NCBI RefSeq assembly: GCF_003790525.1
Contig: NZ_CP033635.1
Direction: 5' to 3' (one strand)
Source: Escherichia coli
GTDB lineage: Bacteria > Pseudomonadota > Gammaproteobacteria > Enterobacterales > Enterobacteriaceae
Length of the DNA stretch: 64,000 nucleotides
Numbering within the stretch: the first letter of the stretch is position 1; each line of letters starts with the position of its first letter. The translations under genes were made by a program, and so were the position numbers. The notes below the pieces were generated by a model. That model was not told the origin of the DNA and searched no databases. It was given only the letters and a program-made list of their open reading frames with translations. Shown here one piece after another: positions 1 to 32,240 of the stretch.

Positions 1-1215
1 GACCACGACCCGAACTACATCATGCAGATGGCCGGACGTGCGGCAGCGCTTGGCGTTGAACGTTTCATTATCGACGACGGCTGGTTTAAGGGACGCAATG
101 ATGACCATGCGGCTCTGGGCGACTGGTATCTGGATGAACAGAAGTATCCGGACGGACTGATGCCGGTGATTAACCATGTGAAATCACTCGGCATGGAGTT
201 CGGTATCTGGGTGGAACCGGAAATGATTAACCCGGACTCTGACCTCTTTCGCCGCCATCCTGACTGGGTACTGTCAATGCCGGGGTACACACAACCAACC
301 GGGAGACATCAGTATGTTCTCAACCTGAACATTCCTGAGGCCTTTGCTTACATTTATGAACGCTGTTTATGGCTGCTGGGCGAACACCCAGTTGACTATG
401 TGAAATGGGACATGAACCGCGAGCTGGTCCAGGCCGGGCATGAAGGTCGGGCGGCGGCGGACGCGCAGACCCGTCAGTTTTACCGGCTGCTGGATCTCCT
501 GCGCGAACGTTTTCCCCGTGTTGAGTTTGAGTCCTGCGCTTCCGGCGGTGGACGTATCGACTTTGAGGTTCTGACCCGCACGCACCGCTTCTGGGCTTCT
601 GACAACAATGACGCCCTGGAGCGCTGCACCATACAGCGTGGCATGAGTTACTTTTTCCCGCCGGAGGTTATGGGGGCACACATCGGTCATCATCGCTGCC
701 ATGCCACCTTCCGGCAGCACAGCATTGCCTTTCGCGGTCTGACGGCCCTGTTCGGTCATATGGGACTGGAGCTGGATCCGGTAACGGCCGGAGAAGAGGA
801 ATCCGCCGGTTACCGCCGCTATGCCTCGCTCTACAAAGAATGGCGGCAGCTTATCCACACGGGCACCCTATGGCGGGTGGATATGCCGGATGCGGCGACA
901 CAGGTGCAGGGGGTGGTCAGCCCGGATCAGTCGCAGGCGCTCTTCCTGGTGAGCCAGCTTGCCATGCCGGATCACACCCTGCCGGGTGCTCTACGTTTTC
1001 CGGGGCTGGCACCACAGGCCCGTTACCGGCTTCGTGTTGTTGACCATCCGGATATTCAGCTGGTCGGTGAAGGCGGGCATACCATGCGCAGGCTGCCCGG
1101 CTGGATGAACCAGACCTCCGACATCAGTGGGGAATGGCTGGCGCAGGCCGGTATTCAGCTTCCCGTACTGGATCCGGAAAGCGCCATGCTGATTGCCCTT
1201 GAACGTTTGGCATAA
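1..1215 (+). CDS. rafA: alpha-galactosidase (GH36), C-terminal part; 5' end lies upstream of window
   Basis: Open frame runs from window edge to stop at 1215; GH36 melibiase-like sequence (DDGWF...); followed by LacY-like permease and GH32 invertase as in raf operon. Confidence 0.85.
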   Translation, partial: DHDPNYIMQMAGRAAALGVERFIIDDGWFKGRNDDHAALGDWYLDEQKYPDGLMPVINHVKSLGMEFGIWVEPEMINPDSDLFRRHPDWVLSMPGYTQPTGRHQYVLNLNIPEAFAYIYERCLWLLGEHPVDYVKWDMNRELVQAGHEGRAAADAQTRQFYRLLDLLRERFPRVEFESCASGGGRIDFEVLTRTHRFWASDNNDALERCTIQRGMSYFFPPEVMGAHIGHHRCHATFRQHSIAFRGLTALFGHMGLELDPVTAGEEESAGYRRYASLYKEWRQLIHTGTLWRVDMPDAATQVQGVVSPDQSQALFLVSQLAMPDHTLPGALRFPGLAPQARYRLRVVDHPDIQLVGEGGHTMRRLPGWMNQTSDISGEWLAQAGIQLPVLDPESAMLIALERLA

Positions 1216-1269
1216 AAGGACCGGAGCCGGTCACGGCTCCCTGCACTCAGTCCCGTGAGGATAACAATA

Positions 1270-2547
1270 ATGAATACTGTCAGTACTCATAAAAACCCCG
1301 ATTTCTGGATATTTGGTCTGTTCTTTTTTCTCTACTTTTTCATCATGGCAACCTGTTTCCCGTTTCTGCCCGTCTGGCTGTCAGACATTGTGGGGCTGAG
1401 TAAAACGGATACCGGGATTGTTTTTTCATGCCTCTCCCTGTTTGCCATCAGCTTCCAGCCGCTGCTGGGGGTCATCTCAGACCGTCTTGGCCTGAAAAAA
1501 CACCTGATGTGGATCATCAGCCTGCTGCTGGTCCTGTTTGCACCGTTCTTTCTGTACGTTTTTGCGCCGCTGCTGCGGTTCAACATCTGGGCCGGAGCAC
1601 TGAGCGGCGGGATTTTTATCGGCTTCGTTTTTTCTGCGGGAGCCGGTGCCATCGAAGCCTATATTGAACGTGTCAGCCGCAGCAGCGGATTTGAATACGG
1701 TAAGGCCCGGATGTTCGGCTGTCTGGGCTGGGCGCTGTGTGCCACCACGGCAGGGCTGCTTTTCAACGTGGATCCGTCCCTGGTATTCTGGATGGGGTCC
1801 GGCTGCGCATTGCTGCTGGTCCTTCTGGTGGCGCTGGCGCGTCCCGGAACCAGTCAGACAGCGATGGTCATGAATGCGCTGGGTGCCAACTCGCCCGTGA
1901 TTTCCGCCGGAATGGTGTTCAGTCTGTTTCGTATGCGTCAGATGTGGATGTTCGTGCTTTACATGATTGGGGTGGCCTGCGTCTATGACGTGTTTGACCA
2001 GCAGTTTGCCACGTTCTTCCGTGCATTTTTTGACACGCCGCAGGCGGGGATCCGGGCATTTGGTTTTGCCACCACGGCTGGCGAGATTTGCAATGCCATC
2101 ATCATGTTCTGCTCCCCCTGGATAATCAACCGCATTGGTGCCAAAAACACACTGCTTGTCGCGGGTCTGATTATGACCATCCGCATCACAGGGTCGGCCT
2201 TTGCCACCACGGCTACTGAAGTGGTGATCCTGAAAATGCTGCATGCCCTTGAAGTCCCATTCCTGCTGGTTGGTGCGTTCAAGTATATCACCGGCGTGTT
2301 TGATACCCGGCTGTCGGCCACCATTTATCTGATTGGCTTTCAGTTCTCCAAACAACTGGCGGCGATATTCCTCTCAACCTTTGCAGGTCACCTGTATGAC
2401 CGCATGGGGTTCCAGAACACCTATCTGGTTCTGGGCGGTATTGTCCTTGCGGTCACCGTGTTATCGGCTTTCACCCTGAGCAGTACCCGTAAAACGGCTG
2501 CCCCGTCAGCAGAAACCGCTACAGCACAGACGGAGGTTCGCTTATGA
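1270..2547 (+). CDS. rafB: raffinose permease, LacY-family MFS oligosaccharide:H+ symporter
   Basis: 425-aa product starting MNTVSTHKNPDFWIFGLFFFLYFF, strongly LacY-like throughout; ATG at 1270 chosen over upstream ORF-track start. Confidence 0.85.
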   Translation: MNTVSTHKNPDFWIFGLFFFLYFFIMATCFPFLPVWLSDIVGLSKTDTGIVFSCLSLFAISFQPLLGVISDRLGLKKHLMWIISLLLVLFAPFFLYVFAPLLRFNIWAGALSGGIFIGFVFSAGAGAIEAYIERVSRSSGFEYGKARMFGCLGWALCATTAGLLFNVDPSLVFWMGSGCALLLVLLVALARPGTSQTAMVMNALGANSPVISAGMVFSLFRMRQMWMFVLYMIGVACVYDVFDQQFATFFRAFFDTPQAGIRAFGFATTAGEICNAIIMFCSPWIINRIGAKNTLLVAGLIMTIRITGSAFATTATEVVILKMLHALEVPFLLVGAFKYITGVFDTRLSATIYLIGFQFSKQLAAIFLSTFAGHLYDRMGFQNTYLVLGGIVLAVTVLSAFTLSSTRKTAAPSAETATAQTEVRL

Positions 2548-31200: not shown

Positions 31201-31296
31201 GTTTCACTCATCATCTCACTCACCAGACTTCATTCCACTGACGCCAGCCTGAACAGGGCTGGCGTTTTCATTTATCTGCAAAAAGGAATATCGATT

Positions 31297-32142
31297 ATGT
31301 CTGATATCACAGCCTCCCGTCCGGAAGTAGTCAACGGGCATACGGACGTTATCTGCTCAACCAGTATCCGCCACATTCTGGCTGTACGAAAAAGTACACT
31401 GCTGCAAATCAACACACTTATCCGGCAACTGGCTGAAATCTCAGCAATGACAGAAAGTATTGGCGGTAAAACCGCACTGGACTGGGCGATGAAACAGGAT
31501 TTTCGCTGTGGCTGCTGGCTCATGGAGAAACCTGAAACGGCAATGAAAGCCATCACACACAATCTCGATCGTGAAATCTGGCGTGACTTGATGCAACGTT
31601 CCGGGATGCTTTCCTTAATGGATGCACAGGCCCGTGAGACATGGTACCGGTCACTGGAGTACGATAATTTTCCGGAAATCAGCGAAGCGAACATCCTGAG
31701 CACATTTGAACAACTGCACCAGAATAAGGATGAGGTGTTTGAGCGAGGGGTGATCAACGTCTTCAGAGGGCTGAACTGGAATTACAAAACCAATTGCCCC
31801 TGTAAATTTGGCAGTAAAATTATCGTCAACAATCTGGTGAGATGGGACCGGTGGGGATTTCATCTTATCACCGGACAACAGGCTGACCGACTCGCCGATC
31901 TGGAAAGAATGTTGCACCTGTTCAGCGGTAAACCAATCCCCGACAATCGGGAAAACATCACTATTCGTCTGGATGAGCACATTCAGTCTGTTCAGGGTAA
32001 AGAGAGCTATGAAGATGAGATGTTCAGCATCAGATACTTTAAGAAGGGCTCCGCGCATATCACATTCAGAAAACCAGAACTGGTTGATCGGCTAAATGAC
32101 ATCATTGCAAAGCGTTATCCGGGACAATTATCAGCCATCTGA
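31297..32142 (+). CDS. hypothetical island protein (281 aa), tRNA-proximal
   Basis: Long clean ORF; no family assignable with confidence. Confidence 0.45.
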   Translation: MSDITASRPEVVNGHTDVICSTSIRHILAVRKSTLLQINTLIRQLAEISAMTESIGGKTALDWAMKQDFRCGCWLMEKPETAMKAITHNLDREIWRDLMQRSGMLSLMDAQARETWYRSLEYDNFPEISEANILSTFEQLHQNKDEVFERGVINVFRGLNWNYKTNCPCKFGSKIIVNNLVRWDRWGFHLITGQQADRLADLERMLHLFSGKPIPDNRENITIRLDEHIQSVQGKESYEDEMFSIRYFKKGSAHITFRKPELVDRLNDIIAKRYPGQLSAI

Positions 32143-32240
32143 GTCAGATGGAAAAAAGCTTACCTGACCCATTACCTGACCCAATTCAAAGGAAAAAGAA
32201 AAAGGGTTAGCTGGTTTATTAGCTAACCCTTTGTTGTGTA

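Follow-up and report, generated by a model that had tools for sequence, protein, structure and literature searches.

An occupied tRNA gene at the edge of accessory DNA

The window analyzed here, a stretch of 64,000 nucleotides of Escherichia coli DNA (contig NZ_CP033635.1), contains a single tRNA gene, which stands at the end of 32.2 kb of sequence without a counterpart in E. coli K-12. From the window start, this sequence holds a raf-type sugar cluster, a type I restriction-modification (R-M) operon, the Ag43 autotransporter gene and, next to the tRNA gene, a module that includes the toxin-antitoxin pair cbeA/cbtA, with fragments of insertion sequences (ISs) in between (Table 1). ARAGORN labels the tRNA gene tRNA-Met(CAT). 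We read it as ileX, which encodes tRNA-Ile2 (CAU), because it matches K-12 ileX (b3069, tRNA-Ile CAU) at 72 of 76 nucleotides, with the 5' 49 nucleotides identical, and because its neighbours on the 5' side are mug, rpoD and dnaG. These genes and the ttd genes follow as in K-12, at 98% identity.

A preliminary description of this DNA had taken everything to the left of the ileX 3' end for a large genomic island extending past the window start. Homology to K-12 does stop at the leftward-facing 3' end of ileX, core homology beginning only at approximately 32228, and position 1 falls inside an alpha-galactosidase gene, whose 5' part is cut off by the window start. In K-12, whose ileX flank had been proposed for comparison, the site is empty and the stop codon of nfeF (yqjH) lies 53 bp past ileX. 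Nor is the region syntenic with non-island sequence in related genomes: a 901-bp K-12 query across mug, ileX and nfeF matches without interruption in 4955 of 5426 complete E. coli genomes, so that the occupied ileX of the window represents a minority state. These and the following genome counts rest on the sensitivity of megablast, which makes them minimum figures where variants have diverged. Window positions 1-25000 are covered to at least 80% in only 26 genomes, positions 25001-40000 in 251.

A hybrid ileX gene and the attachment sites

The distal end of the island lies outside the window and was examined in near-identical genomes, in which the whole island measures approximately 44-54 kb. 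The island of genome XD35, 54.4 kb long, is 99.3-99.6% identical to the window across the whole island part. Its boundaries are ileX at one end and, at the other, a 47-nucleotide remnant of the ileX 3' part that lies, together with an integrase gene, beside nfeF. This is the direct repeat of the ileX 3' end that the preliminary description had proposed to look for, and it is of the native type, sharing both its T-arm (GCTGGTTCAAGTCCAGC) and its downstream flank with K-12. The live ileX gene of the window instead has the T-arm GTTGGTTCAAACCCAAC, with four bases changed, and its downstream flank is also unlike that of K-12. Two of the four changes in the T-arm convert a C-G pair to a U-A pair in compensatory fashion, and the predicted fold keeps the cloverleaf with its 5-bp T stem. 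The functional ileX gene is a hybrid, with a native 5' part and a 3' part supplied by the island.

Sorting of the two T-arm versions, the native one into the distal remnant and the variant into the live tRNA, places strand exchange 5' of the T-arm, within a 20-nucleotide stretch around the anticodon loop, GACTCATAATCGCTTGGTCG, that is identical in the island and native versions. Positions 32268-32287 are therefore the likely crossover zone, as judged from sequence.

A tandem pair of TTACCTGACCCA lies just inside the tRNA-side end of the island, and the same TTACCTGACCCA-TTACCTGACCCA pair occurs in the same orientation at the distal end, 47 nucleotides upstream of the integrase start codon. Elsewhere this 12-mer is found neither in the 64 kb window nor in a 47 kb stretch of XD35, where 0.12-0.18 occurrences are expected. 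In genome PK5074, whose integrase region is 80% identical, a 40-nucleotide block with the TTACCTGACCCA pair is invariant and its flanks have diverged. Given this position and conservation, and because the integrase has an arm-binding domain, the tandem pairs are probably arm-type binding sites of the integrase.

A tyrosine integrase at the distal end in relatives

Read inward from nfeF, the XD35 island consists of the 47-nucleotide tRNA fragment, the integrase gene, an AlpA-family gene, YagM, YagK/YfjJ-type genes and further cargo, which before the raf cluster comprises a copy of the pga operon, a GGDEF gene, phoH, IS5 and IS3. The integrase is intact, a tyrosine-type protein of 438 amino acids with the domains Arm-DNA-bind_3, Phage_int_M and Phage_integrase in a P4-like layout, and its gene starts 21.9 kb upstream of the equivalent of window base 1. 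Genome N-01, 99.6-99.8% identical, has the same ends and less cargo: the pga block is missing, the integrase adjoins nfeF, and the distance to the window-start equivalent is 11.5 kb. An intact 438-amino-acid tyrosine integrase also occupies the far end in genomes LR-72 and PK5074. No integrase was found in the 64 kb window, where tblastn searches with the island's own integrase and with IntF returned only chance matches (E > 0.7). The preliminary description had argued that any integrase must lie beyond the window; in XD35 and N-01 it does, and from these relatives we infer that the genome studied here carries one as well.

Using balanced queries, the junction of nfeF, tRNA remnant and integrase (514 bp of chromosome plus 487 bp of island) was recovered in 359 genomes, and the DUF4942-ileX-mug junction at the right end of the island in 345. 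The figure of 359 replaces an earlier integrase count of 455 genomes, which was dropped as not site-specific, 83% of that query being island DNA.

The integrase is approximately 25% identical to IntF, in the catalytic domain only, and 24% identical to IntA. An IntF-like enzyme, considered in view of the topology of the K-12 island CP4-6, was rejected at this level of identity. The best phage-borne match in a phage genome collection, from a Providencia phage, reaches only 38.7%, so the enzyme is not a known phage integrase. By these sequence comparisons the ileX integrase is a separate lineage, and we found no description of this lineage or of its attachment site anatomy in the literature searched.

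A model for integration at ileX

Taken together, these data make it very probable that positions 1-32240 form the part next to the tRNA of a CP4-type integrative island, and that a tyrosine integrase inserted this island into ileX. When circular, the element would have an attP that includes a 47-nucleotide copy of the ileX 3' half. Recombination between attP and ileX would take place in the 20-nucleotide anticodon-loop stretch, leaving a tRNA gene with a native 5' part and the T-arm, acceptor end and terminator of the island. The displaced native 3' half of ileX would then come to lie next to nfeF at the distal boundary, where the integrase gene would be transcribed inward. Because the integrase is at the far end, the cbeA/cbtA end module adjoins the tRNA, as in CP4-6 of K-12. 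The interior would be variable cargo (raf sugar genes, type I R-M system, Ag43) whose make-up changes through IS elements and through recombination with sister islands.

The same integrase was found at a second tRNA gene. In strain LR-72 (884-2457), an integrase with 99% amino acid identity lies at ileY together with the same TTACCTGACCCA pair. The 47-nucleotide remnant next to it is the native 3' part of ileY, with the flank proper to that gene, and ypjC adjoins it. The LR-72 island shares the raf-to-R-M cargo of the window at 99.5% identity over 24.7 kb. The combination of this integrase with a native ileY remnant indicates that the integrase uses both tRNA-Ile2 genes, ileX and ileY. It is possible, and we put it forward tentatively, that the element is still active and moves with its cargo between these two targets, with the TTACCTGACCCA pairs serving as arm sites.

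Alternative explanations

Several observations weigh against an integrase-driven island at this locus. The window ends 11-22 kb short of the expected integrase position, no excision product or circular form was observed, and the role of TTACCTGACCCA as an arm site is read from position and conservation only. In addition, approximately 471 genomes lack the empty site but megablast, within its sensitivity, recovers the integrase junction in only 359, so that some ileX islands may have an integrase end that is lost or diverged. The same shortfall would suit an immobile remnant, that is, an island whose integrase end was deleted or disrupted so that this genome has no integrase upstream, and the many IS fragments of the interior could mediate such deletions. 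We nevertheless think such a remnant improbable here, as all three inspected ileX or ileY islands with raf cargo (XD35, N-01 and LR-72) retain an intact 438-amino-acid integrase, and the 359 is a lower bound, since variants diverged to 80% identity exist.

A tandem pile-up, in which the 32 kb would derive from two or more islands independently integrated at ileX, each once with its own attachment sites, might account for the strongly mosaic GC content, for the IS junctions that separate the blocks, and for the different middles found between the same ends in EC31, N-01 and XD35. In EC31, for example, the right junction is 100% identical and the raf cluster is the same, whereas the middle has a DMSO (dimethyl sulfoxide)-reductase operon, another type I R-M system and a dynamin/RdcB/patatin cluster. 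However, a search for the ileX core (19 nucleotides, 32269-32287; up to three mismatches) through the window and an upstream stretch of 47 kb in XD35 revealed no copy besides the two at the boundaries, and each island has one integrase and one CP4-type end module. These results make a pile-up unlikely. The best reading is a single element bounded by attachment sites, within which IS activity and homologous recombination, including that with sister islands, explain the variation of the cargo.

It is also unlikely that the region is anything other than a plain integrative island, be it a defective prophage, a phage satellite or a conjugative element. Its K-12 relatives are traditionally called 'cryptic prophages', its integrase has a P4-like domain architecture, and the relatives carry AlpA and YagK/YfjJ-type genes, the latter resembling inovirus Gp2. 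Against this, no capsid, tail or other virion structural gene, no terminase or other packaging gene and no lysis gene was found in the 54-kb XD35 annotation or among the scanned open reading frames of the window (no PHROGs scan was run), no relaxase or type IV secretion gene is annotated in the islands of the relatives or in the window, and the integrase is distant from those of phages.

Contents of the island part

The sugar catabolism, astA, R-M, Ag43 and cbeA/cbtA genes named in the preliminary description were all located within 1-32240, as was the cbeA/cbtA module at the tRNA-proximal end in place of an integrase. Its 'at least six IS types' and its plural toxin-antitoxin modules had to be reduced: the island part of the window has five IS remnants from four families (IS1414/IS256, two IS3-type, IS30 and IS66) plus one group II intron, all of them fragments, and one toxin-antitoxin pair, cbeA/cbtA. 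GC content is mosaic, at 57-59% over 1-7 kb, 42-45% over 12-23 kb and 55-57% over 23-29 kb.

Table 1. Features of the island part of the window and of the ileX gene
Feature	Position	Strand	Remarks
tRNA-proximal 32.2 kb of the ileX island	1-32240		Cut by window start; no K-12 counterpart
raf-type sugar cluster	1-7687	+	alpha-galactosidase (5' truncated), LacY-type permease, GH32 hydrolase, EIIA-like protein, DUF2913 fragments, PfkB kinase, LamB-type porin
IS1414 (IS256 family) transposase fragment	7924-8721	-	Contains astA
astA	8301-8417	-	38-amino-acid EAST1 variant, within IS1414 fragment
IS3-family element	8771-12261	+	Split by group II intron
ALIL frameshift pseudoknot	9052-9168		Of the IS3-family element
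Group II intron reverse transcriptase/maturase	10183-11691		
Group II intron 3' domain	11695-11781		
Type I R-M operon	12498-20443	+	hsdM-hsdS-DUF4268-hsdR
IS remnant cluster	20660-22256		IS3-type orfA fragment, IS30 fragment (minus strand), IS66 tnpA/tnpB fragments
YeeP-type GTPase, IsrC-like small RNA, Ag43 autotransporter	22998-27089	+	
IsrC-type small RNA	23988-24224		Flanked by the YeeP-type GTPase gene and Ag43, an order shared with K-12 CP4-44
Ag43	24243-27089		
Conserved CP4-type end module	27416-32142	+	Pfam matches, in order: DUF932, antirestriction protein, RadC-like JAB, DUF987, CbeA, CbtA, DUF5983, DUF957, DUF4942
CbeA antitoxin	29671-30039		
CbtA toxin	30129-30512		Followed by DUF5983, DUF957 and DUF4942, on to 32142
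Tandem TTACCTGACCCA (two copies)	32160-32183	+	57 nucleotides inside tRNA-side end; putative arm-type sites
Intrinsic terminator hairpin	32201-32232	-	Island-supplied, directly after ileX 3' end; 12-pair stem, then TTCTTTTT on the tRNA strand
ileX, tRNA-Ile2 (CAU)	32241-32316	-	Sole tRNA gene in window; hybrid gene
47-nucleotide attachment segment	32241-32287	-	Reaches from CCA end into anticodon loop; relatives have a second copy at the distal boundary
Shared 20-nucleotide stretch GACTCATAATCGCTTGGTCG	32268-32287		Round the anticodon loop; identical in island and native versions

Several of these features deserve comment. The DUF4268 gene (16248-17411) between hsdS and hsdR matches the PADLOC candidate defence family PDC-S11 (E = 4.5e-182), and the HsdM of the same operon is unusually long, at 807 amino acids. 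The start of hsdS, 14881-15408, does not align with the XD35 island, which is otherwise 99.5% identical; this mismatch is consistent with a swapped target-recognition domain, which would give a different R-M specificity. An Rfam match named 'IS102' at 23988-24224, considered as a sixth IS, was rejected, as it is the IsrC-type small RNA upstream of Ag43; the name may mislead into counting an insertion sequence. The colistin resistance gene mcr-1.1, absent from the window, is inserted in the same island segment in at least eight sequenced relatives of positions 1-25000.

On the core side, the segment 32948-33625 between mug and rpoD measures approximately 680 bp, some 600 bp more than the approximately 85 bp that XD35 has in its place. 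This segment is absent from K-12 and XD35 and fully covered in only three of the genomes listed. Its open reading frame (33004-33567, minus strand) encodes a protein of 187 amino acids with a NADAR domain (Pfam E = 1e-53), which is also a match to PADLOC candidate family PDC-M42C. Also outside the island, SibD/SibE-type antitoxin small RNAs and the ribB FMN riboswitch lie at 53140-53289, 53516-53665 and 57131-57279, at a spacing from ileX that we take to be consistent with the K-12 map.

Relationship to known islands

The components by which we recognize a CP4-type end module (a GTPase, DUF932, an antirestriction protein, RadC-JAB, DUF987 and a CbeA/CbtA-family pair) are all present in the window; AlpA and YagK/YfjJ genes near a P4-like integrase occur in the relatives, outside the window. 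Of the K-12 islands, CP4-44 (yeeP-isrC-flu-yeeS-yeeT-cbeA-cbtA-yeeW) is the closest to the end module, with YeeP (97%), the JAB protein YeeS, the DUF987 protein YeeT and CbtA 96-97% identical at the amino acid level and CbeA 89% identical, and it likewise has an IsrC-type small RNA upstream of Ag43. Unlike the ileX island, CP4-44 has no integrase, tRNA junction, DUF932, antirestriction gene or DUF4942, and its Ag43 is only 71% identical.

CP4-6, at thrW, is similar in arrangement. There the tRNA 3' end is followed by toxin and antitoxin genes, DUF987, RadC-JAB, antirestriction, DUF932 and GTPase genes in the order thrW, ykfI/yafW, ykfH, ykfG, yafX, yafZ, ykfA, and then by IS-rich cargo, yagK, yagM and, at the distal end, intF. 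Its end-module proteins are 49-82% identical to those of the window (61-82% for the module and 49% for the YeeP GTPase), but the target is thrW rather than ileX, the cargo differs, and IntF is the distant enzyme considered above. CP4-57, at ssrA, shares AlpA, YfjJ/YagK, the GTPase, DUF932, antirestriction, JAB and DUF987 genes, a CbtA-family toxin-antitoxin pair and an integrase of P4-like domain layout. In CP4-57, however, it is the integrase that adjoins ssrA and the toxin module that lies at the far end, the opposite orientation with respect to the attachment sites, and IntA is no closer to the ileX enzyme than IntF.

The site itself has been reported before. An integrative element in Shiga toxin-producing E. 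coli (STEC) O145:H28 uses ileX (PMC7067040), and locus of adhesion and autoaggregation (LAA) modules have been found there (PMC5539235, PMC7545054). Likened by description only, these are Ag43-bearing mosaic islands at the same site with different cargo. The literature searched yielded only generic mentions of the ileX site and no named island with raf cargo at either ileX or ileY.

Implications

The element at ileX belongs to a familiar type of E. coli island, its site has been reported before, and CP4-6 provides a textbook precedent for its orientation. Beyond annotation its significance is small: the right boundary of the island is fixed to the base, the positions of the integrase and of the left boundary are predicted, and it becomes clear why the cbtA module, rather than an integrase, adjoins the tRNA. 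The ileX of this strain is a hybrid tRNA gene, and the backbone of the island is also an mcr-1 carrier in several sequenced relatives. Should the element indeed be an active one with two targets, it would move cargo such as the raf genes, the type I R-M operon including its PDC-S11 gene and, in relatives, mcr-1, and every integration event would exchange the T-arm in one of the only two tRNA-Ile2 genes of the cell. An integrase shared by islands at ileX and ileY could, moreover, promote the exchange of cargo between both loci.

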